From an uncultured bacterium (GTDB lineage Bacteria > CSSED10-310 > CAZUFC01), in NCBI GenBank assembly GCA_964619725.1, contig CAZUFC010000003.1, positions 78,423 to 142,422 of the forward strand: a stretch of DNA of 64,000 nt. The letters are read 5' to 3'. The position numbers were made by a program, and so were the translations under genes. Below are positions 12,954 to 31,614 of the stretch, piece by piece. The notes below the pieces were generated by a model. That model was given only the letters and a program-made list of their open reading frames with translations, was not told the DNA's origin and ran no database searches. Every line of letters begins with the position of its first letter. The stretch's first letter is position 1.

Positions 12954-12970
12954 GCTTTCGGGAGATTATT

Positions 12971-14074
12971 ATGCTGAGTTTGACGACTCTTTTATCTGTT
13001 TTGCTGGAGAAGAAGGCTACGGATTTACATATAACGACAGGCGTCTGTCCGCATTTAAGAATAGACGGCATACTGCATCCGTTGTCTCAATTTCCCGTTC
13101 TGGGGCCCAAAGATACCAAGCAACTGGCTTACAGTATTTTAACCGACGTTCAGAAACACAAGTTGGAAGCGGATAAGGAATTGGACTTTTCATTCGGGAT
13201 AAGAGGATTGAGCCGCTTTCGCGCCAACGTATTCATGCAGCGCGGGGCTGTGGCTATGGCCATCAGAACCATCCCTTTCCGCATACCCAGTTTTGAAGAG
13301 TTGGGTTTGCCCAGGGTTATCTCTGATTTGGCTCATAAGCCTAAAGGGCTCATACTGGTGACAGGTCCGACCGGATGCGGGAAATCGACTACTCTGGCGG
13401 CCATCATTGACAAAATCAACCGAGAGAAAAAATTACATGTCGTAACGATAGAAGACCCGATCGAATATCTGCATCAGCATCACGGGTGCGTGGTTAATCA
13501 GAGAGAAATCCTGGCCGACACGAAATCATTCGCCGCCGCTCTTCGATCTATTCTCAGGCAAGACCCGGACGTGATACTCGTCGGAGAGATGAGAGACCTG
13601 GAAACCATTCAGGCCGCTTTGCGATGCGCTGAAACCGGTCACCTTACCTTCGCCACGCTCCACACCAACTCAACCGTCGAAACGGTCAACCGTATTATCG
13701 ATGTTTTTCCGCCTCATCAGCAACAGCAAATTCGCACCCAGTTGTCATTCGTCCTCGAAGGCATCGTCTGTCAAACGCTCCTCCCCAGAAGAAGCGGTAA
13801 AGGCCGCGTCCTCGCTCTTGAAATTATGTGCCCCAACGATGCCATCAGAAATCTGGTCAGAGAAGACAAGATTCATCAAATTTATTCCATTATGCAGATG
13901 GGACAGGATCGATACGGGATGGTCACTTTTAATCAGTCTTTGCTTGCGCTCTATTTAAGAAAACAGATTTCCCTCCAGGAAGCCAGAAATAGAACGATGA
14001 AACCCCAGGAATTCGAGCAAATGTTGCTGAAATCCGGAGAGACTCAGGTTTCTTCTCGCCATAGAAGAATTTGA
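12971..14074 (+). CDS. pilT: Type IV pilus retraction ATPase PilT
   Basis: GPTGCGKSTT, TIEDPIEY, AETGHLTFATLHTN and the AIRNLVRE PilT signature. Confidence 0.96.
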   Translation: MLSLTTLLSVLLEKKATDLHITTGVCPHLRIDGILHPLSQFPVLGPKDTKQLAYSILTDVQKHKLEADKELDFSFGIRGLSRFRANVFMQRGAVAMAIRTIPFRIPSFEELGLPRVISDLAHKPKGLILVTGPTGCGKSTTLAAIIDKINREKKLHVVTIEDPIEYLHQHHGCVVNQREILADTKSFAAALRSILRQDPDVILVGEMRDLETIQAALRCAETGHLTFATLHTNSTVETVNRIIDVFPPHQQQQIRTQLSFVLEGIVCQTLLPRRSGKGRVLALEIMCPNDAIRNLVREDKIHQIYSIMQMGQDRYGMVTFNQSLLALYLRKQISLQEARNRTMKPQEFEQMLLKSGETQVSSRHRRI

Positions 14075-14147
14075 CATTTTTTAACAGAGGACAAGACTTT
14101 GTTTAGAAAACAATTCCTTTCAAATCTTTAGATGGAGGAAAATCAAA

Positions 14148-15362
14148 ATGGCCGAATTCAAATGGATCGGTAAGGATCAGACCGGTAAGGAAGTAAAAGG
14201 AGTCATGTCGGCCGAAACCTCCGATCAAGTTAAACTCCAATTGCGCCGACAGAAAATAGAGCCCGTCAATGTTAAGAAGAGATTGAAGGACATTCAGATT
14301 GTTATTCCGGGACTGTCTTATCGTATTACGGAGAGAGATCTGGTGGTTTTTACCCGAACCTTTTCCACAATGGTCGATGCCGGGCTTCCGCTGGTGCAAT
14401 GCCTGGAAATCCTTTCACAGCAGACGGAGAACCCGGTTTTCGCCAAGGCGATCAATGATATTCGACAAAATGTCGAATCCGGAAGTACATACGCCGATGC
14501 TTTGCGTAAACATCCCAAAATTTTCAATGAATTGTATTGCAATATGGTGGAAGCGGGCGAAACGGGCGGTATTCTCGACACTATCTTGAACCGACTTGCC
14601 TCATACATGGAAAAAAATATATCGTTGAAGCGACAGGTCAAATCCGCACTGGTTTATCCCGGATTCATCATCACGGCTGCAGTGATCGTTATTTCATTCA
14701 TGATGTACTATGTGATACCGACTTTTACCCAGATTTTCGTCCAGTTGGGCAGCACGCTTCCTTTGCCGACGAAAATAGTTATGGGCATCTCTTCCGTAGT
14801 CAAATCGTATATTCACTTTTTCATCTTGGGCATCATATTGATCATTTTGGGCATTCGAGCGATTCACAAGCGGGAGAAAGGCGCATTGTTCATTGACGGA
14901 CTTCTTTTAAAATTACCGGTTCTGGGCTCGTTGTTCAGAAAAGTCGCTGTCGCCAAGTTCACGAGAACTCTGGGAACTCTCATCAGTTCGGGCGTTTCCA
15001 TCCTCGATGGTCTGGAAATTACGGCGAAAACGTCAGGAAATAAAGTCGTTGAGGAAGCCGTGATGAAAACGCGTGTCAGCATTAGCGAAGGAAAAACCAT
15101 TTCCGAACCATTGGCTCAGACCGAAGTCTTTCCTCCCATGGTCGTTCAGATGATTGCCGTGGGAGAATCTACCGGTGCGCTGGATTCCATGTTGGAAAAA
15201 ATTGCAGACTTTTACGATGAAGAAGTCGATGTGGCCGTCGCTAATCTTACGCAGTTGCTGGAACCGTTTATGGTGGTTTTTCTGGGGGTTACCGTAGGCG
15301 GCATCGTCGTCGCCATGTACATGCCGCTGTTTAAATTAATCGGCGAGTTGTCCATGCGCTGA
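14148..15362 (+). CDS. pilC: Type IV pilus platform protein PilC (GspF family)
   Basis: FTRTFSTMVDAGLPL, AGETGGILD, VGESTGALD, LLEP...VAMYMPLF; follows pilB-pilT. Confidence 0.95.
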   Translation: MAEFKWIGKDQTGKEVKGVMSAETSDQVKLQLRRQKIEPVNVKKRLKDIQIVIPGLSYRITERDLVVFTRTFSTMVDAGLPLVQCLEILSQQTENPVFAKAINDIRQNVESGSTYADALRKHPKIFNELYCNMVEAGETGGILDTILNRLASYMEKNISLKRQVKSALVYPGFIITAAVIVISFMMYYVIPTFTQIFVQLGSTLPLPTKIVMGISSVVKSYIHFFILGIILIILGIRAIHKREKGALFIDGLLLKLPVLGSLFRKVAVAKFTRTLGTLISSGVSILDGLEITAKTSGNKVVEEAVMKTRVSISEGKTISEPLAQTEVFPPMVVQMIAVGESTGALDSMLEKIADFYDEEVDVAVANLTQLLEPFMVVFLGVTVGGIVVAMYMPLFKLIGELSMR

Positions 15363-15412
15363 TAATTTCTTCACGAAAAATTCCGGATCGAGGATGCACG
15401 TTTGTTTACAAC

Positions 15413-17176
15413 GTGATGGTTGATATCGATAGTGATCGAAAAAGAATACGGACATTAATCGCAGTCCGTGTCGTCGTCGCTCTTACACTTCTCCTGGGAT
15501 CGGGAATACCTCTTTACATCGGGAGCGAATTCACTAAATCCGTATCGCTTATCCTGTTTAAATTCGTGTTCGTTATTTTCGCCGTTTCTCTGGTTTATTC
15601 CCTTTTATTAAACAGGATCAGGAGAGTTCTTTTTTTCGGTTGCATTCAGATTATCGTCGACGTTATTTTGGAATCGGTCATCGTTTTCTATACCGGTCAG
15701 ACTGGCAGTCCTTTCACCATCCTATACATTTTTACAATTATCTACGCCGGGATTATTCTCAGAAAACATTCCTGCTTCATCTTTGCTGCGCTCTGTTCGA
15801 GCATGTACGTCTGGATGGTCGCAGGAAAAATGCTGAATGTTCTTCCCTTGAAAGAGACCGTTTTCACTCATTTGAACGTCACGATGCCGGTTTCCGAGCT
15901 GGTTTATTTCACAATCGTCAATTTGATCGGCTTTTTTACCGTCGCTTATTTTACCGACTACATATCCGGAAAATTGGAACACACGGATAAACTGCTCAAT
16001 CAGCAGATTTCTCTCGTCGGAGATTTGCAATCTCTAAGATCGAATATACTGCAAAGTATGGCCAATGGCCTCATAACTCTGAACGGCAATGGAGAAATAG
16101 ACCTCGTCAACAACGCTGGGGAGCGTATCCTCGGTTTGCGAGAAGAACAGCTCCAAAGAAAACTCATTGAAGAGATTTTTCCTGATTCTACGGCTGAAAA
16201 AATTAAAAATATAATTAAAAATTTGTCGCAATCAGGAGAGCTCAACGAAGAATTCGAATATATAAAGGAAGGCAAAAATATTCCTCTGGGGCTGGCGGCG
16301 TCTCCTCTGAAAGATGCCAGAGGAAGACAAGTCGGCGCGCTGATATTGCTCAATGATTTGACAAACAAAAAAGAGCTGGAGAAGCACAAGCAGGCGGCCG
16401 ACCGGTGGGCTGCAGTTGCTGAACTCGCAGCCAACATGGCCCATGAAATCAGGAATCCCCTGGCCGCGATCAGCGGCAGCATTGAAGTCTTGCAGGAATC
16501 CATGAAGCTGGACGATACCGATACCCGGCTCATGGACATTATTCTGCGCGAATCGAGCCGACTGAATACACTGATTTCAGACTTCCTGAATTACGCTAAA
16601 CCGCCCGTACTTGAGAAAAACCAATGCGACCTTATTAAGCTGCTCAAAGAAACATCTACTCTCGCCGAATCGGATACTGGAAGGAAGAATCAATTGAAAA
16701 TAATCAGCGATTACAGGATTTCTTCCTTGTATATTCCTCTTGATGCCAAGCAGATTAAACAGGTTTTCTGGAACTTGATTCGTAACGCTATGGAAGCCAT
16801 GCCTGAAGGCGGAATTTTAAAAATTTCAGTCACTAAGGAAAAATATATTAATTCCTCTGACCAGCCTGCCAATTCCAGGGATAAATTTTTCGTCATAGGA
16901 GCCGATGCGATAGAGAATATGGAATATGCCTGCATTTCTTTTAAAGATAACGGGATAGGGATTTCCGAGGAGAATCTGAGTTCTATTTTTAATCCATTCA
17001 CAAGCTTTAAAGAGAACGGATCGGGTTTGGGATTAGCCATCTCATATCGTATAATAAAAGATCATGGAGGAAGGATTGCCGTTAAAAGCATCCCGAATGT
17101 CGGAACGGTTATTGATCTATTCCTTCCTTTGGAACAAACCGCCGAAATGCTGACGGCCGTTACCCAGGAGATTTGA
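15413..17176 (+). CDS. pilS: PilS-like sensor histidine kinase (multi-TM, PAS, HisKA, HATPase)
   Basis: About 6 TM segments, AHEIRNPL, NLIRNA, DNGIGI, GSGLGLAI; position between pilC and an NtrC-type regulator. Confidence 0.85.
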   Translation: MMVDIDSDRKRIRTLIAVRVVVALTLLLGSGIPLYIGSEFTKSVSLILFKFVFVIFAVSLVYSLLLNRIRRVLFFGCIQIIVDVILESVIVFYTGQTGSPFTILYIFTIIYAGIILRKHSCFIFAALCSSMYVWMVAGKMLNVLPLKETVFTHLNVTMPVSELVYFTIVNLIGFFTVAYFTDYISGKLEHTDKLLNQQISLVGDLQSLRSNILQSMANGLITLNGNGEIDLVNNAGERILGLREEQLQRKLIEEIFPDSTAEKIKNIIKNLSQSGELNEEFEYIKEGKNIPLGLAASPLKDARGRQVGALILLNDLTNKKELEKHKQAADRWAAVAELAANMAHEIRNPLAAISGSIEVLQESMKLDDTDTRLMDIILRESSRLNTLISDFLNYAKPPVLEKNQCDLIKLLKETSTLAESDTGRKNQLKIISDYRISSLYIPLDAKQIKQVFWNLIRNAMEAMPEGGILKISVTKEKYINSSDQPANSRDKFFVIGADAIENMEYACISFKDNGIGISEENLSSIFNPFTSFKENGSGLGLAISYRIIKDHGGRIAVKSIPNVGTVIDLFLPLEQTAEMLTAVTQEI

Positions 17177-18579
17177 TGGGAAAACTACTTGTCGTCGATG
17201 ATGAGCCGAGCATCTGCGCTATGCTCAGCATAATGTTTGAGAAACAGGGACATTCGGTCAAATCATGCACCAGCGCTCAAAAAGCCCTCGCCTCTATCCA
17301 GGACGAAAATGAATTCGATGTTCTGATTTCCGATATCAAGATGCCTGAAATGGATGGTCTGGAGCTTTTGAAGTCAGTTAAAAACATAAATCCCAATCTT
17401 CCGGTCATTTTAATTACGGCTCATGACAATAAAGAAACCGCCGTTTCCGCGTTGAAACACGGCGCCGAGGATTACATTGTTAAGCCTTGGAAAAAGGAGG
17501 AATTGAGGTTTCTGGTTGAGAGGGCCATTCGGAACCGTCGACTGAAAGAAGAGAATTTGATTCTCAAGCAGGAATTACAAACGCATTATCGATTTGAAAA
17601 TATTATCGGTAACAGCAAAAAAATTAGAAATATTTGGGGTACGATAAGAAAAGTGGCGGACCTGGATGCCACTGTTCTGATTACGGGCGAAAGCGGTACC
17701 GGAAAAGAGCTCATAGCATCGGCCATTCATTATGCAGGAGCCCGAAAAGAGAAGCCTTTCGTCACCGTCAATTGCGGCGCTTTACCTGAAAGCCTGCTTG
17801 AATCGGAACTTTTCGGACATAAAAAAGGAGCTTTTACAGGCGCTTATCAGAATAAGCCGGGTTTATGCGAAGTGGCGCATACCGGGACAGTGTTTCTTGA
17901 TGAAATCGGTGAAATAAGTCCCTCATTTCAGATAAAACTGCTCCGTTTCCTCAACGATAAAAAGTTGAAAAGATTGGGCAGCGTGGACGACATTACCGTG
18001 GACGTCAGAGTTATAGCCGCTACAAATAAAGACCTCCAGGCCGCAGTAAACGAGGATAAATTCCGCCAGGACCTCTTCTATCGGCTGAACGTCATTCCTA
18101 TACACGTGCCGCCGCTGAGGGAAAGGAAGGAAGATGTTCCTCTTCTCGCCGAATTTTTTCTTCAAAAATATTGTGAAAGATGTCGATGTGAATTGAAAAG
18201 ATGTTCTTCAGAAGCCATAAATCTCATGATAGAATACAAATGGCCGGGCAATGTGAGGGAACTGGAAAACGTCATCGAAAGAACGGTGGCTTTGGAACCG
18301 AAGCCTTTGATCATTCCGGAAAGTCTGCCTCCGGAGATTCGTCAAGCCGGCAGAAAAAAATATTATTCGATAAACGATATAGAAAAAGAACCGGCCAGTC
18401 TTGACGATATTCTCAGCAATATTGAGAAGAATATTCTGGTCGATGCGTTAAAGAAAACCGACGGGGTAAAAATGAAAGCCGCAGAATATTTGAAGATCAG
18501 TTTCCGTTCATTAAGATATCGGTTGCAAAAACACGGATTAGGCGATAACAATAACGTCGATGAAACGAAGGAGTTATAG
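17176..18579 (+). CDS. pilR: PilR-like sigma54-dependent response regulator (REC-AAA-HTH)
   Basis: LLVVDDE, GESGTGKE, GAFTGA, WPGNVRELEN and HTH ISFRSLRYRL; TGATG coupling to pilS. Confidence 0.88.
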   Translation: MGKLLVVDDEPSICAMLSIMFEKQGHSVKSCTSAQKALASIQDENEFDVLISDIKMPEMDGLELLKSVKNINPNLPVILITAHDNKETAVSALKHGAEDYIVKPWKKEELRFLVERAIRNRRLKEENLILKQELQTHYRFENIIGNSKKIRNIWGTIRKVADLDATVLITGESGTGKELIASAIHYAGARKEKPFVTVNCGALPESLLESELFGHKKGAFTGAYQNKPGLCEVAHTGTVFLDEIGEISPSFQIKLLRFLNDKKLKRLGSVDDITVDVRVIAATNKDLQAAVNEDKFRQDLFYRLNVIPIHVPPLRERKEDVPLLAEFFLQKYCERCRCELKRCSSEAINLMIEYKWPGNVRELENVIERTVALEPKPLIIPESLPPEIRQAGRKKYYSINDIEKEPASLDDILSNIEKNILVDALKKTDGVKMKAAEYLKISFRSLRYRLQKHGLGDNNNVDETKEL

Positions 18580-20148: not shown

Positions 20149-20826
20149 ATGCTTTCTGTCATTATTCCAGTTTACAACGAAGAAAATACCCTCGAAATCA
20201 TAGTAAGGCGTTTGTTGGACCTGAAACTGGACCTGCAAATCATTATCGTCGACGACGGTTCCGACGACGCTACCCCCCTCGTTATGGATCGTCTCGCCAA
20301 TACCCCGAAAGTCATTGCCCTCAGGCATAATGAAAATAAAGGCAAAGGCAGCGCCGTCATAACCGGCCTTACTCGCGCCCAGGGTGAAATTACCGTGATC
20401 CAGGATGCCGATCTCGAATACGATCCCATTGACCTTGTTACTATGTACCATTACATGACCGAAAAAAAACTCGACGTTCTCTACGGTTCAAGGATTCTGG
20501 CCGGCTCCTCCATGTCCCACTTAAGATTCTGGCTGGGTGGACGACTAATAACCTTTATCACTAATCTGCTTTTCAAAAGTCATATCACGGATGAACCAAC
20601 CTGCTATAAAATGATCAGAACTCCACTGCTGAAAGATTTGAAACTGGAATCAACAGGATTTGAATTCTGTCCGGAAGCGACCGCCAAGATATTGAAGAGA
20701 AATATTAAAATTCCCGAACTGCCTGTAGCTTATTACCCGCGCAAAAAAAGCGAAGGAAAAAAAATAAATTGGCGCGACGGTTACCGGGCCGTGATCACAC
20801 TCCTCAAATATAAATTAAAAAAATAA
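20149..20826 (+). CDS. Glycosyltransferase family 2 (polyprenol-phosphate glycosyltransferase/DPM1-like)
   Basis: LSVIIPVYNEE, VDDGSDD, NKGKG, QDADLEYDP, TDEPTCYK. Confidence 0.92.
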   Translation: MLSVIIPVYNEENTLEIIVRRLLDLKLDLQIIIVDDGSDDATPLVMDRLANTPKVIALRHNENKGKGSAVITGLTRAQGEITVIQDADLEYDPIDLVTMYHYMTEKKLDVLYGSRILAGSSMSHLRFWLGGRLITFITNLLFKSHITDEPTCYKMIRTPLLKDLKLESTGFEFCPEATAKILKRNIKIPELPVAYYPRKKSEGKKINWRDGYRAVITLLKYKLKK

Positions 20827-21039
20827 TCAAAATTTTCCGAGTCATTCCCTCCAGAGAAACATAGGATTCCTGCAAATTAATGTCAAAGGGCAGAAAAGTG
20901 TGAAACAGAAAAATTACACGTTCGCGTAAAGTTACCCCTCTGCAGAACTGAATCTGCAAAAAAAGCGACTCCCTTTAAATCTTCTTGCTTGTTTAATGCA
21001 GGGCACGCAACCCGTTGATGAAAATCTTTACCGGTTTAT

Positions 21040-21921
21040 TTATTCTTCCGGAGCCAATCCTTTCTCAATCAAAAATGAAAGGTCTTCCGTCTTTATTCTT
21101 CCAGAAGAACCGGAGCCGTTTCTGTAAATGTGTCTGATCGACTTTTTCAATTCATTGATGTTGCCCGGCCAGGGATAATCCATCAATAATTGCATCGCTC
21201 CATCGGTGAATCCCCTCAATTCCTTGCCGTATTCCTGGTTGAATATCTGAGTGAAACGGTTGACCAGATGAGGAATGTCGTTGACGCGCTCACGCAAAGG
21301 CAATAATTTGAAATCCAATACATTTAACCGGACGTAAAGTTCCCTGTTCATCATTCCCGTATCGACAAGCTTCGATAAATCGTCCGTTGTGCTGCCTATC
21401 ACTCGATACTTATCCGTTATCGATCGTTTGGAAAGTCCCCTCAAATGATCCAGGAAATAAATAGTCGTCTTCTGAAAATCAGCTTCCAGATGCTCGATGC
21501 CGTCCAGATAAATCGTCACTAGTTTGTCCAGGTAACCGGCTGCAGGCGGATTGTAAAAATAATCCGTTTCGATTTTTATTATCCCTTTACGCTCGTATCT
21601 TTTTAATAGCTCCATGGACAAAGTCTGACGCTCATGGACATGCTGCAATATCTTCTCCTTCTCCCTTGAAGGCAATTCCTTGCACATCTTCCTGCATGAA
21701 ACGTCCACAAAATGTTTTTTCGGCGCCGCACTCTGATTATGAATAACACGCGCTAAAAGTTTCTTGCCTGTTCCCACTTCGCCATACAGCATCAACGGTC
21801 CGTCAATGCGCTTCGAAATGTCGGCAAATTCCACCATCTTCTCGATGAATTTCGTGCTTCCCAGAATGTCCTTTACCGTATAACCGTCCCTTCGCTTTTT
21901 CGTTTTCCGCACTTTGTTCAT
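21040..21921 (-). CDS. Stand-alone degenerate sigma54-activator AAA+ domain (no GAFTGA, no Walker B Glu, no HTH)
   Basis: GEVGTGKK, FVDVSC, IYLDGIE, RELYVRLNV, LRER and WPGNINEL are retained; the GAFTGA loop is replaced by unrelated sequence. Confidence 0.8.
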   Translation of the reverse strand: MNKVRKTKKRRDGYTVKDILGSTKFIEKMVEFADISKRIDGPLMLYGEVGTGKKLLARVIHNQSAAPKKHFVDVSCRKMCKELPSREKEKILQHVHERQTLSMELLKRYERKGIIKIETDYFYNPPAAGYLDKLVTIYLDGIEHLEADFQKTTIYFLDHLRGLSKRSITDKYRVIGSTTDDLSKLVDTGMMNRELYVRLNVLDFKLLPLRERVNDIPHLVNRFTQIFNQEYGKELRGFTDGAMQLLMDYPWPGNINELKKSIRHIYRNGSGSSGRIKTEDLSFLIEKGLAPEE

Positions 21922-22028
21922 AACCTTTGCTTCCTTTCCTATTGCTTCATCGATGCCGACGTACCCTTCTACTGTTCCTCATCAAACGAATACTCATAAA
22001 AATCTTCGCTCAATCGAAAATTATCCTT

Positions 22029-22286
22029 TTAAAATAATTCCAACGGAACTACAAAATTAAAAAGCTCTTCCCAGAATCCAGCAGGAGCATATCCGCCGTC
22101 CCCTTCTTCCTCTTCGTCTCCCGTATCACCGGATGAATTGTCTCCGTTTCCCTGATCGTCATAATTGGAAGGATCCATTGATAATGCTCCCCCTCCGTCA
22201 GCATAAATGCTCTCCAAAGCTCCTCCGACAAGGCAAATCACCAGCATTGCCGTCATTACGGAAATTATAAGTTTGTAATCTCTCAC
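22029..22286 (-). CDS. Small secreted acidic peptide (85 aa)
   Basis: GTG start after a GGGGAAG RBS; signal-peptide-like N-terminus ending IYA; D/E/G-rich middle; hydrophobic tail GFWEELFNFVVPLELF; sigma54 promoter just upstream. Confidence 0.7.
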   Translation of the reverse strand: MRDYKLIISVMTAMLVICLVGGALESIYADGGGALSMDPSNYDDQGNGDNSSGDTGDEEEEGDGGYAPAGFWEELFNFVVPLELF

Positions 22287-22365
22287 AGCATCTTCCCCCT
22301 TTCAGGAACTCCTTTGTTTGTCGGTTTTTTCATTTTTTGAAATTGAAAATCCCGTCTATGCTAAA

Positions 22366-22382
22366 AGCAATAACTGTACCAA
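22366..22382 (-). promoter_or_regulatory. Sigma54 (-24/-12) promoter
   Basis: Minus strand TTGGTACAGTTATTGCT has exact GG-N10-GC spacing and is close to consensus TGGCAC-N5-TTGC; 80 nt upstream of the peptide gene. Confidence 0.8.
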
Positions 22383-22411
22383 CAGCAAAAAAAGAGTTAA
22401 AAAGACTGAAA

Positions 22412-22424
22412 AAACAATGACTTA
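22412..22424. promoter_or_regulatory. Putative IHF site
   Basis: AAACAATGACTTA has one mismatch to WATCAANNNNTTR and sits in an A-tract between the sigma54 promoter and the candidate enhancer. Confidence 0.4.
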
Positions 22425-22553
22425 ATAAAAAGACGCGTTTCCAGAGTCTTAAAATGAAAATTTCTGCCTCCATCATCAAGCAAAAGAACGTTACAAAAAT
22501 TTATTCAAGTTATTGAATTTAAAGGGAAACGAATAAAAAGAACAAAACTTTAC

Positions 22554-22574
22554 AATGTCACAAAATATAACATT
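22554..22574. promoter_or_regulatory. Candidate upstream activator sequence for the sigma54 promoter
   Basis: Imperfect palindrome AATGTCACA-AAA-TATAACATT (TGT-N11-ACA) about 175 bp upstream of the -24 element. Confidence 0.4.
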
Positions 22575-22594
22575 TATAAAAAGAATTCATGGAC

Positions 22595-25500
22595 TCAATG
22601 TTGCTTTTTGGGCCAGGGAATTCTGTATTCTTCCATTTTTCTGTCAAGCGTCGGTCGAGAAATGCCAAGGACTCTGGCAGCATCAATTTTTCTCCAACGA
22701 AGTTTTTTGAGAGTTCTTTGGATGTGTTTTTTTTCCATTTCAGCGAGAGAAAAGAGTTCATGCTCTTCTGTTTCGTCGACTTCTTCAACGGAGACGTTTT
22801 TAATACGAGGCGGAAGGTCTTTTCTTTTGATGAGCGGCGGTTTTCCGTAGACGACGGCGAATTCGACAACGTTTTCTAGGTCTCTGACATTCCCAGGCCA
22901 ATTATATTTTTTAAGGCATGTAATGGCTTCTCTGGTAAAGCCCTTGAACATTTTATTCATGCGTTTCATTTTTCTGGCGAGGAATTCAGCAGCAAGGATG
23001 GGGATGTCGTCTTTTCTTTCCCGGAGAGGGGGAAGCCGCAGGGGTAGCACATTGATGCGGTAGAAGAGGTCTTCCCTGAAATTACCATTTTTGACTTCTT
23101 TGATGAGGTCTTTGTTGGTAGCGGTAATGATACGGACGTCGACTTTACGTTTTTTACCGGCGCCGAGCTTTTGAATTTCTCCGTCATTGAGCGCTCTGAG
23201 CAATTTTGATTGAACGATGAAATTCAACTCAGCGATTTCATCGAGGAAGAGCGTGCCGCCGTCAGCGATTTCGAAGGCTCCTTTTTGATCTCTGTAAGCG
23301 CCGGTAAAGGAGCCTTTGACATGTCCGAAAATCTGGGATTCGAGCAATGATTCCGGAATAGCGGCGCAGTTAACAGGGTGAAAAGGTTTATCTCTTCTGG
23401 CGCTGTTCAGGTGAATGGCTCTGGCGAAAAGGTCCTTGCCTGTGCCCATTTCTCCTTCAATGAGGACCGTAGAATCGCTTTGAGAAATGTTGGGCAATTG
23501 TTTAAAAAGGTCCAGCATTTTTTTGCTGTTTCCGATGATAAGGTTCTGATAGCTGTATTTTTGTTCCACGTTCTTTTTGAACAGGAGGAATTCTTCCTGT
23601 TGCTGCTTGTAATAATTCGATCTGTCGATGGCGACCGCGGCAAGATTGGCGAAAGCGGAAAGAAAATCCCTGTCTCTTTCGCTGAACAAGTCCTGACTTT
23701 TTCTGCTGTCGACGTAAATAGTACCGATGATTTTATTTTCGATGAACATAGGGACGCACAGAAGCGACAATATATTGTACATCTGAACGCTTCTGAATCT
23801 GAAGAAACGTTCGTCCGACAGGGCATTGTTTGAGAATAAGGGTTCATTTTTTTCGAGTGTGGAGCGGACGATGTTTCTGCTGTAGTCCTTGGCGTCCTCC
23901 ATGGTTTTAGGGTCCAGATTCTTGGTAACCTGAGGATAAAGTTCACCGCTGCTGTCGTCCAAAAGAAATATCATGCCTCTTTCGGCTCCCACAAAACGAA
24001 TGGCCTGTTCCAATATACGTTCCAGCAGGTCTTCCGGCTCGGTTAAAGAATTAAGAATCGAAGCGATCTGAGAAAAAGTGTCGAGCAGCACGTAAACGTC
24101 TGTTTGCGTTTTAGTCTGCATCTCGCTTTCAATTTTTTTCACCAGCCCCTGAGCTTTAGCCAGCTCCGATTGAGCTTCCAGACGCTGGAAATTGTCGACA
24201 GCATTTTTGGAAAATCTCAACGCTTTTTCATAATCCTTCAATTCTATAAAAAGATTGGCGAATGTTAAATAAACGCGACTCAATCCCGCCACCGAATCCA
24301 GTTCCTGGAAAAATTTGAGCGCTTTATCCAGGTCGCTTCTGGCTTTATTGAACTGCTTCTGTTTCAGCCGGATTTTTCCGAGAAGATGATGGATTTCAGA
24401 AGATTCCATTTTATGGCCGACTTGCTCAGCAAGCTCAAGCGCCTTATCGCATAAATCAACGGCCTGATCCACATCATCCTGCGCCAGCTTTACCTCTGCC
24501 AGTATCCTCGTGTTCTTCGCCAGATTCTTGCCGGCCTCCATTTCACTGTAGAGGTTGATCGATTTGTTGAGGAACTTTTCGGCCAGGGGATATTCGCCTT
24601 TCTCTTTGTATATGTTGCCGATATGCGAAAAACAATCCGCCATGCCGCCCTGATCCTTGGAACGAATCCAGATTTCCAGGCTCTCGTTGAAAAACTTCAA
24701 CGCATCATCCCAGCGTCCTGTTCGCTGCTTCAGAAAACCCAAATTTAAAAGATTTCGCGCTATCTCAATGTGCTGATTATACTTCTCCGCCAAACTCAGC
24801 GCCTTCCTGAAACAGCTCTCCGCTTTTTTCCACTGTCCTATATCCTCGAACAACAGTCCGAGATTGGTGTTGGAACTTATGATCAGGCGGTGATCGTTCA
24901 TTTTTTGGCCGATCATTATGGCCAAATTGAAAAATTCCTCAGCCTTCGCCACTTCGCCCAGTTCCCGATGTGTGTTGGCTAAAAATTGATAGATTTTCGC
25001 CAGTTGAAAAAAATTCCCCGTTTTATGGAATATCTCCAGGCTGTAATTAAAGTGTTCGAGAGCTTGATGATACTGACTTTTTTTGAAAAAAACCAGTCCC
25101 AAATTTAAATAATTCACCGCCCGTACATCGATATTCTTGTTCGCATCCAACAAAGAAAGAGCCTGACGATAAGTGTCCCTCGCATCATCAAGTTTTCCCA
25201 GAGAAAGATAAGCGCTTCCCATAGCATTATATATTTTGCTCTTCTGAAGGTCCATCTGCTTTTGACTTTTGACCTTGCTGAGCGTCTCTTCGCATATTTC
25301 CAACGCTTGATCGATTTCCCTTTTTTCAATATGCTGCCAGGCTAAATCCATCTTTAATGAAACGCCTGTTCGACTCTTGCTCCAATCGGGAAGAACCTCC
25401 AATCCCTTCTCCATAATTTCTCTGGCTTTTTCCGCGTTCCCTTTTCTTTTTTGCAGCCTGGCAAGATTCATGTAGAGAGAACTGATTTTCTCCGCGGAAA

Positions 25501-27904
25501 ATTTGCGGTTTTTAACTATCTGAAGAGCCTTATTGTAAGCATCTTCCGACTCGCTGTACCGCCCCGTTCGTCCCAGTAACTGGCCCATGGATTTCAGCGC
25601 CTCAAATTTGTGTTTCAGCGCTCCTTTTTTCCTCATCATTTCCAGGGACCACTGATAATAGGTCAATGCCTGCTGGATATTATAAATCGACGCAGACTGA
25701 TGACCGGCTCTCAGCGCATACAACGCCCCCTTCTGATAATTGTTCGAATGGTAATGATGGTAAGCTAGGTCTCCCGCCTTCTTCTCCTGATCCTCTTGAG
25801 TCTTCTTCTCATAATATTTGGCGACTCTTTTGTGGTACAATTCTCTCGTTTTTTTATCAATCGCCGAATAGATGTATTCTTTCATCGGAAGATAACTGAA
25901 CCTGTATCTTAAATCGCCGTTGGCGGATACCGTCGTGATCAGTCGCCGGTTCATCAGCTTCGAGAGACTTTCCAATACCAGGTAGGAATCGATGTTGGCC
26001 AAACCCACTATGTCCTCCACCGTGAAATCGCCCCTCAATACTGAAGCATGACGAAGCAATTCCCAATCCGTTTTGAATAAACCCTCCAGACGTCCCTCCA
26101 TCGATTGCTGTAAAGATTGTGGAATTTTATGCTGCTTGGATTTTCCGGATTGAAATATCCAGCTTTCCCCACGTAACTCGATGACTCCCTTCTCGATCAT
26201 TGAATAGAGTATCTCTTCAACAAAAAGAGGATTGCCGCTTGTCGCCTTGTACGCCTCATCCGTTATCACTTCTTCAAAATTCGCAGCGCCGAGCATCGAC
26301 GAAAGCATCTCCTGCGTGCTCTTTTTGTCGAAAGGTTCAAGGTTCACCACGTTCGAATACAAATCCTCGCTATGAACCGACTCTCTTCCCGGCGAACCCA
26401 TGCCCGAACGCGTTTCGAAATAATCGTCGTCCATTGTCGCCAGTAACATTAAATGACAACGATCCTCCTTGTCAGTGTAATCCTCGTAGCGGTTCAACGT
26501 GTTCAAAAAATACTTCAGATAATCCAGGCTGCTCTGATCAGAAAAATGAATATCCTCTACCGCCAACACCAGCGGATCTACGCCGTTCTGAGGGTCCACG
26601 ATTCTTTTAGTCATCTCCCAGATAAAATGAGATAAACTCTCAAAGAGAAGTATCTTGTCCTTTTCAGATTTGATCTCTAACGGCTGATTCCGCAAAGATG
26701 CCTCTTCACTCTCGTAAAATTCCGGCGCCAAACGGCTCAATTGTACCTTGTACTTTTCAAGTATGCCGGATGCCTCAGCCCCCAAATACTTGACCATCTG
26801 ATTCAGCAATTCAACTATCGTCTGATAAGCTTTGTCTTCATCATGATGACAAACGCTCTTGAAAATCCGCGCTCCTCCTATCTGCACCTCGCGCTCAAAC
26901 TCATTAAGAAGCCGCGTCTTCCCGACGCCGAACTCTCCCTTTATAAGACAGGATTGAGGCTTATTGTTCTTTACTTCCGATAAATACCGCTGAAGAGCCG
27001 AAAACTCCTCTTCGCGACCGATGAAACTGCTGTAAAATCTGAAAGTCGTCGGAGTCAGTATACGCTTCGCTTTCATCGGAGTCACCAAATCTCCCAGAAC
27101 CTCAGTCGCATGCCGATATCGGAGAGCCGGGTCCTTCGCCAGCAATTTCTGAATCACCCCACTTAAACGCTGGGGCACCTCCTCGTTTATCTCTCGCGGC
27201 GGCGAAACCTCCTTTTCCAAATGCGCCATGCCCGTCTTTAACGGCGTATCCATCAAAAAAGGATTCTTCCCCGTCACCAGCTCATAAGCTACTACTCCCA
27301 GTGAATATAAATCCGCTCGCTGATCCACCGGCTTGTTCGAAAAATATTCCGGCGCCGTATACCCTAAATTGCCGCGCAGCGTCGAAGCCCCCTTCTTCTG
27401 ACTTAAAAGCTTGAACCAGCCCGCATGACCGAAATCCACCAGCTTCACGCTGTATGAACGACGGGCTTCGCCCGCTCCTGAATTCTGAAGCAATATGTTC
27501 CCCGGATTTATGTCGCCGTGAATTATACCCAACCTGTGCATGTAAGACAACGCCTGGCATATCTGGACCATTAAACGGGAAAATAAAAAATAATCTGGCC
27601 GCCGCGCCTCAATCGCTTCCGTCATCTTCGGACCCTTGATATGCTCCATCGTGAAAAATACCCGGTAGCCGCTCAATATCCCGCCTCGATAAAAATCAAA
27701 CGCACGCACGATGTTGGGATGACGTAATTGTGACAATATGCGATACTCGTTCTCCAGCGCCTTCACTTCTTCTTCCTCCACCGCCGTCTTCAGTATCGCC
27801 TCGCGCTCCTCGTAATCATCCCGAACAAGATAAAGATTGCCCCATCCCCCCTGGTCAATCTGCTCGATTATCTTGTATCTGCCCCCTAATATCACGCTTT
27901 CCAT
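22595..27904 (-). CDS. Ser/Thr kinase - STAND NTPase - TPR array - GAF - sigma54 activator AAA+ - Fis HTH fusion (1769 aa)
   Basis: Kinase: GGWGNLY, HGDINPGN, DFG, YTAPE, ADLYSLG. STAND: FIGREEE, GEFGVGKT, VEDIH, SGNPLFVEE. Long TPR array. GAF: AERGMIFL...IGTIYVDS. Activator: GEMGTGKD, GSFTGA, LFLDEI, WPGNVRDLEN. HTH: AARVLGISRPTLDRKM. Confidence 0.93.
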   Translation of the reverse strand: MESVILGGRYKIIEQIDQGGWGNLYLVRDDYEEREAILKTAVEEEEVKALENEYRILSQLRHPNIVRAFDFYRGGILSGYRVFFTMEHIKGPKMTEAIEARRPDYFLFSRLMVQICQALSYMHRLGIIHGDINPGNILLQNSGAGEARRSYSVKLVDFGHAGWFKLLSQKKGASTLRGNLGYTAPEYFSNKPVDQRADLYSLGVVAYELVTGKNPFLMDTPLKTGMAHLEKEVSPPREINEEVPQRLSGVIQKLLAKDPALRYRHATEVLGDLVTPMKAKRILTPTTFRFYSSFIGREEEFSALQRYLSEVKNNKPQSCLIKGEFGVGKTRLLNEFEREVQIGGARIFKSVCHHDEDKAYQTIVELLNQMVKYLGAEASGILEKYKVQLSRLAPEFYESEEASLRNQPLEIKSEKDKILLFESLSHFIWEMTKRIVDPQNGVDPLVLAVEDIHFSDQSSLDYLKYFLNTLNRYEDYTDKEDRCHLMLLATMDDDYFETRSGMGSPGRESVHSEDLYSNVVNLEPFDKKSTQEMLSSMLGAANFEEVITDEAYKATSGNPLFVEEILYSMIEKGVIELRGESWIFQSGKSKQHKIPQSLQQSMEGRLEGLFKTDWELLRHASVLRGDFTVEDIVGLANIDSYLVLESLSKLMNRRLITTVSANGDLRYRFSYLPMKEYIYSAIDKKTRELYHKRVAKYYEKKTQEDQEKKAGDLAYHHYHSNNYQKGALYALRAGHQSASIYNIQQALTYYQWSLEMMRKKGALKHKFEALKSMGQLLGRTGRYSESEDAYNKALQIVKNRKFSAEKISSLYMNLARLQKRKGNAEKAREIMEKGLEVLPDWSKSRTGVSLKMDLAWQHIEKREIDQALEICEETLSKVKSQKQMDLQKSKIYNAMGSAYLSLGKLDDARDTYRQALSLLDANKNIDVRAVNYLNLGLVFFKKSQYHQALEHFNYSLEIFHKTGNFFQLAKIYQFLANTHRELGEVAKAEEFFNLAIMIGQKMNDHRLIISSNTNLGLLFEDIGQWKKAESCFRKALSLAEKYNQHIEIARNLLNLGFLKQRTGRWDDALKFFNESLEIWIRSKDQGGMADCFSHIGNIYKEKGEYPLAEKFLNKSINLYSEMEAGKNLAKNTRILAEVKLAQDDVDQAVDLCDKALELAEQVGHKMESSEIHHLLGKIRLKQKQFNKARSDLDKALKFFQELDSVAGLSRVYLTFANLFIELKDYEKALRFSKNAVDNFQRLEAQSELAKAQGLVKKIESEMQTKTQTDVYVLLDTFSQIASILNSLTEPEDLLERILEQAIRFVGAERGMIFLLDDSSGELYPQVTKNLDPKTMEDAKDYSRNIVRSTLEKNEPLFSNNALSDERFFRFRSVQMYNILSLLCVPMFIENKIIGTIYVDSRKSQDLFSERDRDFLSAFANLAAVAIDRSNYYKQQQEEFLLFKKNVEQKYSYQNLIIGNSKKMLDLFKQLPNISQSDSTVLIEGEMGTGKDLFARAIHLNSARRDKPFHPVNCAAIPESLLESQIFGHVKGSFTGAYRDQKGAFEIADGGTLFLDEIAELNFIVQSKLLRALNDGEIQKLGAGKKRKVDVRIITATNKDLIKEVKNGNFREDLFYRINVLPLRLPPLRERKDDIPILAAEFLARKMKRMNKMFKGFTREAITCLKKYNWPGNVRDLENVVEFAVVYGKPPLIKRKDLPPRIKNVSVEEVDETEEHELFSLAEMEKKHIQRTLKKLRWRKIDAARVLGISRPTLDRKMEEYRIPWPKKQH

Positions 27905-28026
27905 TTTTTTTAATCTCCTTTCGGATTTTTATCACAATTATTGTAACGAACTTTTACGCAGAAGACAAAGTGATTTTTGAGGTTTCAAGGGAAATTTTTA
28001 ATTTTTTTTTCGAAAAAGTGCAGGTT

Positions 28027-29943
28027 TTATTCGAATTTTATCGGTGAAATGTAAAGTTTTGGATTTTCAGGAGGGATAAGTGTAAGTGATCTAAGACTTA
28101 TTTTTGACGGGGAGGCTGCAGGGTCTAAACGAATGCCGGTCAGATGAGTTTCCGGAGAGGAGGATTGAATGGGAGCGGCATCAACAGAGTAGATATGAAA
28201 TTCAGAATCCTGGAAGATGTCGAATTCGATTTTTTTATTTTCGTCCCAGGTTGGGTCAAATTGAGTAATCCAGTAGATTTGGGCTTTGGACAGGTCATGA
28301 ATTCCCGAAACGGCCATTTCAATTTTGAAGGAATGAATTAATCCGATGGGCCATTGGATATGGAGAGTGAGGAGATGGGGGTCGCTGCCGTAAGAGATCA
28401 GAGACCAGTAGGGGGATGTACCGGTGAGTTCAAGTTCAGGGGAGGTAAACCAGTTATGTACAGGCATTGAGCTGTCGAATTTCCATTCTTTCCTGTAAAA
28501 AGAGGGCGGAACGATTTGAAGGATAGTTGAGCGGAAATCGTAAAGTCTTTTCAAGCGTTTTTCTTCTTTGAATCGGGAACCGGTCCAGGTGAGGAAACGG
28601 TATGAATGGTAAGGAGGCGGAGGCGGAATGTTGCGCATCTGAATTTCGGAGAATGTGTATGCGCGGATATCGTAGGGTTGGAATTCATATTTCATTTTGT
28701 AATAAAGCGAGGCGCCGCTTTTAACGACATGGGCGGGTCCGAAGGAGGATGGGAGGTTTTGAATGAAGATATGAGTATCTGGAGTGATTTTTCCTGTGCA
28801 TTGTTCTATTTTTTGAGGAATTTGATCGATGAAGCTCCCGGCATAATGCCAATAGGGAAGAAGGGAGCGGATAATGAGGAGGGAGAAGAATCCGAAAAGG
28901 AGGAATGCTGTTGTAAATAGTGTGCGTGCGGTATGAGCGTTTATTTTTTTCAGTCCGGAAAAGAAACCGGCGGCTGCAACTGCAGCGCCTATCAGCGGCA
29001 TGTAAAGGAAACGTTCTCCATAGATGCTTAAAGCCGGGGATAATGCTGCTGTGAACCAGAATATCCCGGTCCGGGTTTTTCGGTTGAATGCCGCGAAAAA
29101 AAGAAAAAGCAATGCGAGCTGCATACTGGAAAGTTTAATTCCGTTTTTTGAAAGAAAGGGAGAAAACAGAGCTCCTGCATAGGTTTTCAGGTGTTCCCAA
29201 AGGTTAATTCCGAAACTGAAATGAACTTTGTTCCCGTAAACGCCGACGCTGCCCAGAACGAAAATTCTATAGAGGAGATAAGCTGCGAGAATCATGAAAA
29301 AAGGAATGAGCGGGATGATCGCTTTTTTGATTGTCGTGGACTTGCGACGAAAAAATGCCGCCAGTATAAGTATGAGCAGAGGAAGAGAAGTTGCCGTGCC
29401 TTTGCACAGCAGGGCGGCAACGAAAACGATATAAGCGGATAGGATGAATCTGGCTTTATTGCGGTAAAAAAACAATAAAAACAGGTTCAGAGCACACAAT
29501 TGAAAAAAGGCGCTGAAAAGTTCAAAAAGATTGGAAGCCCAGGGAATGATGTATGCCTGAAGCGGGTGAAAAGCGAAAATAACGCAGCCAAAGGCAGCAT
29601 ACCCGGAATCTTTCAGCATCCTTTTCATGATGACGAACGCCATGGATACATTCAGACAATGAATGATGAGACTCAAACAATGATAGGCCTGCGGACGGAA
29701 TCCGAATATCCTGAACATGCAGGTGAATGCCAGCTCGCCGACCGGACGATAAAAAAGTCCCTCACGCCCCTCCAGGAAATTTATGCCGATTTCCGAAATT
29801 CGTTGTTTCTTCAGATAATAGAAATCGTCTGCTGTAAAATAATCGTCGATTACAGGCAGAAATATACCCCAAATCCCCAGGAGGATAAAAAACAAAATCA
29901 CCTTGTCCAGCGTCCGGACTCTTGCTTCGCCGGCGATGTTCAT
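28027..29943 (-). CDS. Multi-TM GT-C-like glycosyltransferase with C-terminal soluble beta-sandwich domain
   Basis: FTADDF, FYRPV, FAFHP, ALLCK and ERFLYMP motifs; more than 10 TM segments; C-terminal SDPHL...IRLDP. Confidence 0.7.
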   Translation of the reverse strand: MNIAGEARVRTLDKVILFFILLGIWGIFLPVIDDYFTADDFYYLKKQRISEIGINFLEGREGLFYRPVGELAFTCMFRIFGFRPQAYHCLSLIIHCLNVSMAFVIMKRMLKDSGYAAFGCVIFAFHPLQAYIIPWASNLFELFSAFFQLCALNLFLLFFYRNKARFILSAYIVFVAALLCKGTATSLPLLILILAAFFRRKSTTIKKAIIPLIPFFMILAAYLLYRIFVLGSVGVYGNKVHFSFGINLWEHLKTYAGALFSPFLSKNGIKLSSMQLALLFLFFAAFNRKTRTGIFWFTAALSPALSIYGERFLYMPLIGAAVAAAGFFSGLKKINAHTARTLFTTAFLLFGFFSLLIIRSLLPYWHYAGSFIDQIPQKIEQCTGKITPDTHIFIQNLPSSFGPAHVVKSGASLYYKMKYEFQPYDIRAYTFSEIQMRNIPPPPPYHSYRFLTWTGSRFKEEKRLKRLYDFRSTILQIVPPSFYRKEWKFDSSMPVHNWFTSPELELTGTSPYWSLISYGSDPHLLTLHIQWPIGLIHSFKIEMAVSGIHDLSKAQIYWITQFDPTWDENKKIEFDIFQDSEFHIYSVDAAPIQSSSPETHLTGIRLDPAASPSKISLRSLTLIPPENPKLYISPIKFE

Positions 29944-29980
29944 CTTTTCGGATTCAACGAGTTTCCTTATTCTATGAAAT

Positions 29981-30484
29981 TTATCTGAACAGCTTGTTCA
30001 GCAAATTGTTGATTTTTGGAATGTTTATATAGGAAGGACCGTAATCGCCCGTCATGTTCGGCCTGACGCCTTCTCCGCACAGAAAAATCGCATCCTCCTC
30101 AGAATAGATGCCCACCACGAAATTCTCTTCCCGGCATATGTCGGAAAAGTCTTTGATCAAAGGACGAAGATTTCTGAGAATCTTATTTACATCGTTTGAG
30201 CGGGGCTTGCTGTCTGCATCAAGGAGATTCAGAACAAAAAGAAACGGGCGGAAAAGAAGATTCAACCGGTCGGGAAGAAGAAAATTAATTTTCAGCTCCT
30301 TAGAGTCCCGTTTTAGGCTCAAAAGGGTTGATTTTCGGCTGTTAATTTGTAAATCCAGGGGCGTTTTTTTCGATTCCTCGATTATCTCGGGAAGTTCCGC
30401 AAAAATCTCAGCGAACTGATCCCCGGCCGCCATTTCATGAATATTTTCCGTCAAGTGAGACAGTCGGTTTATTATATCGTTCAT
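29981..30484 (-). CDS. Hypothetical protein (167 aa)
   Basis: GGAGG RBS and clean ORF; no recognisable motif. Confidence 0.6.
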   Translation of the reverse strand: MNDIINRLSHLTENIHEMAAGDQFAEIFAELPEIIEESKKTPLDLQINSRKSTLLSLKRDSKELKINFLLPDRLNLLFRPFLFVLNLLDADSKPRSNDVNKILRNLRPLIKDFSDICREENFVVGIYSEEDAIFLCGEGVRPNMTGDYGPSYINIPKINNLLNKLFR

Positions 30485-30716
30485 TCAAGCCTCCTTTTGC
30501 TTTTCCGTATTTACCATAAAAAGAACCTTTTTTTCCAGAAACTCTGATTGTTACCCGACAACAGGAATTTTGGAGACTGAGGAAACAGGGATGACTATTT
30601 TGACGAATCACTTCTTTTCTTTTCCGTGATATCTGCAGCGGCAGAGTCTCTGTCTTCCTTTCCAGAATGCTGTGCATTTTAATCACCACGAAATTTCGTT
30701 ACTCAAAGAAGGGATA

Positions 30717-30733
30717 TTGGTACATATTTTGCT
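30717..30733 (+). promoter_or_regulatory. Sigma54 (-24/-12) promoter
   Basis: TTGGTACATATTTTGCT with GG-N10-GC spacing, about 90 nt upstream of 30825. Confidence 0.7.
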
Positions 30734-30824
30734 GAGTTTTTTGATGTTTTGCAGAGTTCGACATCACAATTAAGGGCTTCGCTGAAGCTGAAACGCTTAA
30801 TTTTTTTTCACTCGCTGGAGGTGT

Positions 30825-31400
30825 ATGGTGAAAACGAAAAATCTCTGCAAAAAAGAGGAAATCGACAGCATTGAAAAATGCCGGAAAAAACTTTTTTCAA
30901 AGCAAAAAGTAAGAACTGACGAACTGGAGGAGGCTATGGTTTATCTGGCTCACGAAGGTTCGGATGAGGCAGTTTCGCTTTTAAAGGAGTATGGAAAGAA
31001 TGTGCCGGAGAATTTGAAGTATTTTTACGACTGTGCTTACGATGAAGCGGCATATTTTAATTTCGTGGAGAAAACGCAGGACATGAAAATTAAAGTGGAA
31101 ACGCCCAAAAATTTCAAACCGGAAGAGAACGGGGAGAAACTGGAGCAGTTGGAGAGAGACTGTCGTTCCATTGAGGAGCGTCTGGCGGAAAAGGGCATTA
31201 TCGTTTCATTATGCGAAAAACTGCCGGTTGAGCTGAGGAAAAAATATGTGGAAAAACTGGATGAATTGCTGAAGGGATTTCGATTTAAATCTGATGGATT
31301 CATTCATTTCGACGGCTGTTCCGGATACTGCGAAGAATGTTTTCAGTTCCAGTGGTGCGATGTTGCTGCAGAAATTATGGGCAGCAGCCGTCTTATGTAG
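30825..31400 (+). CDS. Hypothetical protein with C-terminal Cys cluster (CxxxCxxCxxxxxC)
   Basis: GGAGGT RBS; IHFDGCSGYCEECFQFQWC suggests a metal or Fe-S site. Confidence 0.7.
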   Translation: MVKTKNLCKKEEIDSIEKCRKKLFSKQKVRTDELEEAMVYLAHEGSDEAVSLLKEYGKNVPENLKYFYDCAYDEAAYFNFVEKTQDMKIKVETPKNFKPEENGEKLEQLERDCRSIEERLAEKGIIVSLCEKLPVELRKKYVEKLDELLKGFRFKSDGFIHFDGCSGYCEECFQFQWCDVAAEIMGSSRLM

Positions 31401-31494
31401 TTTTTGTCCATTAACTCGTTCGCGTGCACAGGCGTGCGTGCGCCGGTTCATTCAGGCTCAAGGTTGAACAGAAAAGAATTAATGAGCGGGGCAC
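31400..31494. mobile_element. Degenerate 95-bp relative of the 200-bp MITE
   Basis: Begins GTTTTTGTCCATTAACTC and ends GAATTAATGAGCGGGGCAC, resembling the two MITE ends; flanks TATGTA/TGATTA are not an exact duplication. Confidence 0.45.
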
Positions 31495-31614
31495 TGATTA
31501 AACGTTTGACTTTTTAAGCTTCGAAGCGCTAAATAAGAAAAGGTGAAAAGGTCAAATAGTCATTGCAACAAGAGTCGATTTTCAATGAACCGCAAACATC
31601 AAAGGAATAAAAAA

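Follow-up and report, generated by a model that had tools for sequence, protein, structure and literature searches.

A giant kinase-STAND-TPR-GAF sigma-54 activator, two probable flanking sigma-54 promoters and a degenerate AAA+ protein: a possible FleQ/FleT-like feedback variant in an uncultured bacterium

Does a giant sigma-54 activator of an uncultured bacterium switch on the small operon that follows it, and could one product of that operon hold such activators back? The locus that raises this question lies on contig CAZUFC010000003.1 (assembly GCA_964619725.1), within a stretch of 64,000 nt that was analyzed as a whole and is called the window here. It consists of three co-oriented open reading frames (ORFs) on the minus strand, the giant P0001, the small P0002 and the activator-like P0003. 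A preliminary description made from the sequence had recognized these three genes, which indeed encode 1769, 85 and 293 aa, together with a gap of about 310 bp behind the first (308 bp), and had interpreted them as a self-contained peptide-signalling switch. We favor a different reading, to which we assign a probability of about 0.4: the giant would activate one or both of the promoters that flank it, and P0003 would act as a non-productive ring subunit, a feedback variant of the FleQ/FleT type.

By its domains and motifs, P0001 is predicted to be an intact sigma-54 activator whose action depends on ATP and rpoN, and an rpoN gene is present in the host genome. The protein kinase, STAND NTPase, TPR, GAF, sigma-54 AAA+ and HTH parts follow one another along the chain (Table 1). 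Pfam and motif checks bore out the activator output (GSFTGA, LFLDEI, HTH) that had been read from the letters: the AAA+ domain keeps GEMGTGK (Walker A), LFLDEI (Walker B DE), FREDLFYR and the arginine fingers, and GSFTGA, at residues 1531-1536, is the variant also carried by canonical homologs. In an alignment of 24 full-length homologs, the catalytic residues of kinase, STAND and AAA+ domains are invariant with one exception, and the STAND Walker A residues G323, G326, G328 and K329 belong to the invariant set. The kinase of P0001 has K39, D131, N136, D157-F-G and P185-E186, with Asn133 as the catalytic-loop residue. This asparagine (window positions 27506-27508) replaces the lysine of HxDxKxxN that 90% or more of the 24 homologs keep. 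No membrane segment was found in P0001, the one borderline hydrophobic stretch falling inside the GAF domain, and the protein is predicted to be cytoplasmic.

Both halves of the giant resemble known regulators. The combination of Pkinase, AAA_16 and a MalT-like TPR module is shared with PknK/MalT-type STAND regulators and with the kinase/cyclase fusion family TIGR03903, whose match to residues 294-999 (5e-60) stays below the family cut-off; unlike these proteins, P0001 ends in a GAF-gated sigma-54 AAA+/HTH output and not in a LuxR-type HTH or a cyclase. The C-terminal 500 aa are of the NifA/FhlA type (GAF-AAA+-HTH) and match TIGR01817 NifA at 6e-117, although the 391.6 bits against a cut-off of 528.85 do not make them an equivalog. 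NifA/FhlA-type activators differ in lacking the 1270-aa kinase-STAND-TPR extension, and no nif genes lie near P0001.

P0003 is a bacterial enhancer-binding protein (bEBP) reduced to its motor domain. Its Pfam matches are Sigma54_activat (PF00158, 1.8e-18) and AAA_lid_14 (PF25601, 9.9e-19) and nothing else; it has neither an HTH nor an N-terminal sensor. The AlphaFold (AF2) model (pLDDT 83.3, pTM 0.82) confidently predicts the bEBP AAA+ fold, and the best Foldseek matches are the AAA+ domains of NtrC1 (3m0e, E 3.6e-17), FleQ, PspF, ZraR and VpsR. Walker A, both arginine fingers, PLRER and WPGN are kept. The GAFTGA loop has become ERQTLS, in which the threonine alone is retained, Walker B reads IYLDGI in place of hhLDEI with loss of the catalytic glutamate, the sensor-I asparagine is replaced by threonine, sensor II reads WPGNINEL in place of WPGNxREL with loss of the arginine, and a 20-aa insertion is present. 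On these motifs, P0003 is predicted to be unable to hydrolyse ATP, touch sigma-54 or bind DNA. The gene had been called a degenerate, activator-like paralog of the giant. With GAFTGA, the Walker-B glutamate, the sensor-II arginine and the HTH lost, "degenerate" is apt, while "paralog" holds at the level of the family only, the giant's AAA+ domain being just the third-best P0003 paralog in the genome by score, at 34% identity and behind two others.

Since all sigma-54-specific features are gone, P0003 might instead be an evolutionary relic, or have taken on a new role as an ATP-binding protein apart from sigma-54 control, such as that of an adaptor for P0002 or an envelope process, with P0002 perhaps a minor envelope protein. 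Such a fate has parallels, as GAFTGA-less TyrR, DhaR and HupR are described in extracts of PMC3162934 as working independently of sigma-54, and the orphan status of P0003 would suit it as well: its best relatives of similar length (184 matches among 1065 candidates) are ordinary activators that do not exceed 33% identity, and the best identity to longer proteins is 32% (41 matches among 2293 candidates). Yet the ORF is intact, its codon usage is gene-like, and the frame has remained uninterrupted through a long divergence, no relative in the protein searches exceeding 33% identity. The structure model is confident, and the inter-subunit arginine fingers and lid motifs, which matter mainly inside a ring, have been kept. 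The known sigma-54-independent derivatives also differ in kind: TyrR, DhaR, HupR and VpsR combine the bEBP AAA+ fold with a contact loop for sigma-54 that is deleted or mutated (PMC3162934, in extract), but they have kept both their sensor and their DNA-binding domain and function as regulators of the sigma-70 type, whereas P0003 has neither domain. We consider a relic or repurposed P0003 improbable. Among the bEBP homologs encountered, P0083 and P0117 are compact proteins (293-309 aa) that have lost the GAFTGA loop by deletion and retain a Fis-type HTH, and Walker B of P0083 likewise reads DG; these features suggest that the two form a class of their own, mini-regulators independent of sigma-54.

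The preliminary description had placed a correctly spaced -24/-12 promoter in front of the 85-aa gene, and this element, P1, fits the strict motif TGGYAY-N5-TTGCW. It lies 213 bp past the giant's stop codon and 80 nt before the P0002 start codon, and transcription would be expected to start near 22355-22357, with a predicted 5' untranslated region of about 70 nt. Strict matches in the window number two (P1 and a second site, P2) against 0.10 expected, a count that 2 of 100 shuffles reached, and both sites are intergenic and correctly oriented. Across the genome the strict motif shows no enrichment, with 29 sites where base composition predicts about 36; 21 of the 29 sites fall outside ORFs of 120 aa or more, so that an intergenic, correctly oriented match is very likely a real promoter. 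We therefore regard P1 as probably a genuine sigma-54 promoter of P0002-P0003. The minus strand shows no terminator-like site between these two genes, and a hairpin in the P1 leader was not significant (z = -1.14). Two further signals that had been read in the gap do not exceed chance: IHF-like sites with one mismatch number 83 in the whole window against 86 expected, and the TGT-N11-ACA palindrome belongs to a dyad AATGT-N11-ACATT beginning 20 nt behind the stop codon of the giant, while the gap contains 6 such five-base dyads in all, against an expectation of about 3.

P2, which the preliminary description did not include, has a core near-identical to that of P1. It sits 2.8 kb upstream of the giant, in the divergent gap ahead of the P0243-P0242-giant string and 92 nt before P0244, so that P1 and P2 bracket the giant. 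It faces two genes for predicted exported proteins, P0244 and P0245. The similarity between the promoters may extend upstream of their cores. A candidate enhancer, or upstream activating sequence (UAS), lies some 50-70 nt ahead of the P1 -24 element and contains AGACTCTGGAAA at 57-68 nt from that element, and its two 8-mers have counterparts at a similar distance from P2; upstream of P2, at 52-76 nt and on the other strand, stand CAGAGTCT and TTTCCAGA. Among the 29 strict sites of the genome, only P1 and P2 have both GACTCTG and TCTGGAA, at about 60-75 nt upstream, and 91 of 2000 block shuffles reached the observed match. The shared element is suggestive, a lead and not a finding.

Table 1. 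Features of the locus, with positions in the 64,000-nt window
Feature	Positions	Strand	Description
P0003	21040-21921	-	293 aa, bEBP-type AAA+ domain alone
P0002	22029-22286	-	85 aa, GTG start
Gap P0001/P0002	22287-22594		308 bp
Promoter P1	22366-22381	-	TGGTACAGTTATTGCT; GG 22379-22380, GC 22367-22368
Candidate enhancer (UAS)	22430-22450		dyad AAGAC-N11-GTCTT containing AGACTCTGGAAA
Dyad AATGT-N11-ACATT	22554-22574		contains the TGT-N11-ACA palindrome; chance level
P0001 (giant)	22595-27904	-	1769 aa, Pkinase/STAND(AAA_16)/TPR/GAF/sigma-54-AAA+/HTH
P0001, HTH_8	22625-22750	-	residues 1719-1760, Pfam
P0001, Sigma54_activat and AAA_lid_14	22775-23539	-	Sigma54_activat residues 1456-1622; PF00158, 1.1e-69
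P0001, GAF	23624-24040	-	residues 1289-1427, Pfam
P0001, TPR/MalT-TPR region	24215-25492	-	residues about 805-1230; PF17874, 2e-33
P0001, AAA_16/STAND NTPase	26489-27025	-	residues 294-472; PF13191, 3.3e-21
P0001, Pkinase	27104-27877	-	residues 10-267, Pfam
P0242	28027-29943	-	638 aa, 8 hydrophobic segments, no family match; co-oriented, upstream of giant
P0243	within 28027-30484	-	167 aa, no family match; co-oriented, upstream of giant
Promoter P2	30718-30733	+	TGGTACATATTTTGCT; strict -24/-12
P0244	30825-31400	+	191 aa, Cys-rich C-terminus, no family match
P0245	31543-34266	+	907 aa, Lamin-tail domain, N-terminal hydrophobic segment

In the reading that we favor, the kinase/STAND/TPR sensor, of the PknK/MalT kind, would gate the NifA-like AAA+/HTH output together with the GAF domain. 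The giant would then activate P1, P2 or both, P1 driving the lineage-specific two-gene operon P0002-P0003 and P2 driving P0244-P0245. P0003 would be taken up into activator rings, formed by the giant or by some other of the genome's roughly 40 activators, as a non-productive subunit that binds ATP and offers its arginine fingers while contributing no hydrolysis, DNA binding or sigma-54 contact, and would in this way lower their output; its own expression from P1 would let it damp or time-limit activation. The individual steps are not equally secure. Activation of P1 by the giant falls a little short of an even chance, and an action of P0003 through mixed rings is put forward more tentatively.

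The closest precedent is found in Rhodobacter (Cereibacter) sphaeroides, where FleQ activates the sigma-54 promoter of the FleT operon and the two proteins form hetero-oligomers (PMC7277832, PMC10084136). FleT, classed as a type Ic activator (PMC3162934), is like P0003 a second, AAA+-only protein without N-terminal domain and HTH; it is encoded behind a sigma-54 promoter, as P0003 probably is. The preliminary description knew of no described system with this layout, which was overstated, as FleQ, PfleT and FleT are wired in the same way with a live subunit. In the extracts cited, FleT is functional and its hetero-oligomer with FleQ activates later promoters, whereas P0003, without GAFTGA and the Walker-B glutamate, should be passive or inhibitory at most; nor are there flagellar genes near P0003. 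Being both AAA+-only and, as predicted, dead, P0003 would be a new variant of bEBP derivative. How such a subunit could matter is indicated by RedR, whose inactive subunits inhibit active ones in mixed oligomers (PMC10084136), and by the finding that a single ring contacts the promoter complex through several of its L1 loops (PMC3467059). The feedback inhibitor proposed in the preliminary description thus has precedents in FleQ/FleT and RedR, while the mixed rings at this locus are our inference. Restraint by a regulon's own product is also familiar in other forms. PspF is held back by PspA, a product of the regulon that PspF controls. In the HrpR/HrpS/HrpV case, HrpV is named as a negative regulator (PMC4145663, in extract). 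P0003 would share with these cases an activator restrained by the product of its own regulon, but PspA and HrpV are not AAA+ proteins, and P0003 is a degenerate copy of the motor domain.

The architecture of the giant is widespread across several phyla yet uncharacterised. A full-text literature search, with subscription journals and supplements outside its scope, found no paper describing a kinase-STAND-TPR-GAF-sigma-54 protein; a preprint match on fungal NLRs was unrelated to this architecture. A word-indexed search of 5.8 billion proteins gave 390 matches to P0001 among 8000 scored candidates, the top non-self match having 30% identity across 100% of the length, and dozens of full-length homologs were found at 25-32% identity. 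Pkinase and Sigma54_activat are both listed in at least 31 of the first 32 non-self matches (P0123-P0154), and the named sources of homologs are Thermoanaerobaculia, Acidobacteriota, WOR-3 and similar groups. Within the host phylum, 8 of 14 genomes, the host included, contain a match at E <= 1e-100, and a sweep of Acidobacteriota, with two candidates scored per genome, yielded at least 3 of 301. A profile search of genome contigs with the 24-sequence alignment was discarded, having keyed on generic bEBP motifs (ELFGHxKGAF, FREDLFYR) and returned ordinary activators; in that search only L002 and L017 extended past the C-terminal module.

To compare gene neighborhoods, nine homolog loci from the host phylum and four from other phyla were used, of which 12 were informative; L098, a 572-aa GAF-type activator with almost no DNA downstream, was left out of the count. 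Pkinase and Sigma54_activat occur together in 8 ORFs of the fetched loci, the L099 protein has the sigma-54 module but lacks a strong match to the kinase, L109 is without the kinase, and L095 is cut at the contig start. A PP2C phosphatase directly follows the giant homolog in four loci (L095:2249-6351, L096:1517-5618, L097:3568-5379 and L099:4808-5716), which points to phospho-signalling as the input. In L095 and L096 the phosphatase is followed by genes for an NAD-epimerase and a sulfatase-like membrane protein, an order that suggests kinase/phosphatase control of envelope genes. Elsewhere, an FHA protein gene lies downstream on the opposite strand (L092), a PAS-receiver protein is encoded downstream (L093 and L094), and the loci in other phyla have unrelated genes there. 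In one genome of the same phylum (G001), a GGDEF diguanylate cyclase takes the place of the sigma-54 module behind a Pkinase-AAA_16-TPR sensor (L100:3963-8762). Because this protein joins the same sensor to a GGDEF output, the kinase-STAND-TPR sensor appears, by its domain composition, to be an exchangeable input cassette. No same-sense sigma-54 motif was detected downstream of the giant homologs in the 12 informative loci. The preliminary description had proposed as its own check that a sigma-54 motif, a small signal-peptide ORF and a degenerate AAA gene should recur among homologs, and this recurrence was seen in none of the 12. The absence of a conserved peptide or promoter at these loci rules out a conserved family-wide circuit, and a lineage-specific circuit lies outside the reach of that comparison.

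These neighborhoods also bear on the role of P0002. Its GTG start codon is preceded at 6 nt by a Shine-Dalgarno-like GGGGGAAG, and the protein begins with MRDYK and a single strongly hydrophobic segment (KD19 2.57), with a plausible signal-peptide cleavage site, identified by inspection, between SIYA and D. The tail of about 55 aa carries 14 acidic and 0 basic residues, its middle being acidic and Gly/Asp/Glu-rich and its C-terminus hydrophobic and aromatic. The codon-usage score of 0.248 (real genes 0.182 +/- 0.065) is above that of 99% of 75-100-aa ORFs; the hydrophobic N-terminus and this gene-like codon usage sustain the earlier claim of a small signal-peptide gene. An exhaustive HMMER search against 1.84 billion representatives returned P0002 itself and one low-complexity match only, its own genome holds no paralog, and the protein atlas gave no usable match. 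The simplest view of P0002 is that of an acidic protein exported to the envelope, which the circuit would produce as an output and not sense as a ligand. Sigma-54 regulons have been proposed to concern the cell exterior (PMC3162934, in extract), and the predicted export of P0002 and P0245 fits this proposal.

The preliminary description had cast P0002 in another role, that of a secreted peptide which re-enters the cell, binds the giant's TPR region and triggers STAND oligomerisation and sigma-54 autoinduction. As in RRNPP systems, a TPR regulator adjoins a small signal-peptide gene, here under a plausible target promoter, and the hydrophobic aromatic C-terminus of P0002 is distinctive. There is no sequence relation to RRNPP proteins, though, the output is a sigma-54 AAA+ module, and a peptide gene is conserved with its receptor in 0 of the 12 informative loci, even though the TPR sensor is conserved there; neither P0002 nor P0003 has homologs, those 1.84 billion representatives included in the case of P0002. 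The sensor is usually paired with PP2C, FHA or PAS-REC neighbors and in L100 is fused to GGDEF. Moreover, the giant is predicted to be cytoplasmic, so the peptide would have to be re-imported in what its type IV pilus genes make an apparent diderm, and no importer was identified. We give very little credence to this model, and equally little to P0002 as the ligand of the TPR sensor. The same holds for the full self-contained switch, a highly improbable arrangement in which the giant would fire both flanks, the dead AAA+ decoy would poison the ring as a pulse generator and the exported peptide's C-terminus would feed back on the TPR region, amounting to a Gram-negative sigma-54/STAND analogue of RRNPP signalling.

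Returning to the feedback variant that we favor, several results weigh against it. Both operon products are orphans: P0002 has no homologs in the HMMER search, and no close relatives of P0003 were found among the protein searches, JGI data included. When P0002, P0003 and P0242-P0245 were compared by tblastn with the 12 informative loci, the AAA+ domain of each giant was the only match. Within its genome, P0003 resembles other paralogs at least as closely as the AAA+ domain of the giant, which does not point to a specific pairing. The upstream element shared by P1 and P2 is borderline (p about 0.05) and was chosen post hoc, and no dyad with the same half-site and spacer is common to the two promoters. 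About 40 other activators are encoded in the genome, including a PilR 4 kb away (17173-18579), any of which could drive P1, and no RNA run is listed among the sequencing runs that contain the locus.

Part of this evidence would suit mere adjacency, in which another activator drives P1, P0002-P0003 are unrelated to the giant, and the targets of the giant are P2 or lie elsewhere. Besides the many activators and the lack of a special affinity of P0003 to the giant by sequence, the giant's family has no conserved neighboring sigma-54 promoter, a relaxed motif having been found near only one of the 13 homolog loci (L100), where the gene in front of it is SSB-like. However, the promoters on which bEBPs act usually lie nearby, and P1 begins 213 bp after the giant's stop codon; furthermore, the near-identical cores of P1 and P2 are accompanied by the borderline upstream element at no other strict site of the genome. 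We regard adjacency without coupling as rather unlikely, though it deserves more weight than a relic P0003.

The arrangement itself is well supported. The stretch is present in three DNA runs of one microbial-mat study, whose contigs equal the window sequence wherever they overlap, with no differences listed. In two further samples of the same study the contigs are identical across P0003, P0002 and P1, and the arrangement is therefore not an assembly artefact. The host genome (9.17 Mb in 344 contigs) is 90.9% complete with 6.5% contamination; its phylum is represented by only 13 other species genomes, none of them in the host's own family. Upstream of the giant, 122 bp separate it from P0242, and the giant has its own ribosome-binding site, AAAGGAGA. 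P0242 has a DD-rich loop near its N-terminus and about a dozen distant paralogs in its own genome. P0245 has many partial paralogs there (contigs C118, C174, C145, C156 and others), several tandem copies of its N-terminal domain lying on C118. Rfam gave no match at E <= 1 in 20800-31600, and PADLOC reported generic kinase and RtcR-type domain matches only, with no membership of a defence system. On the far side of P0003, a type IV pilus regulatory and assembly cluster (11136-18579) encodes PilB-like and PilT-like ATPases, PilC, a PilS-like kinase and a PilR-like sigma-54 activator, and is followed by a 136-aa ORF without a family match and two glycosyltransferases.

P0001 places two oligomerising NTPase engines (STAND and bEBP AAA+) and a kinase on one polypeptide, and candidate target promoters on both of its flanks make the locus unusual and offer an immediate handle for reporter assays. 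The practical weight of the P0002-P0003 pair is limited, as it is known from one uncultured genome only. Should P0003 turn out to be a naturally occurring "poison subunit" expressed from a sigma-54 promoter, it would represent a new way to build negative feedback into enhancer-dependent transcription and would be a useful tool for damping bEBPs.

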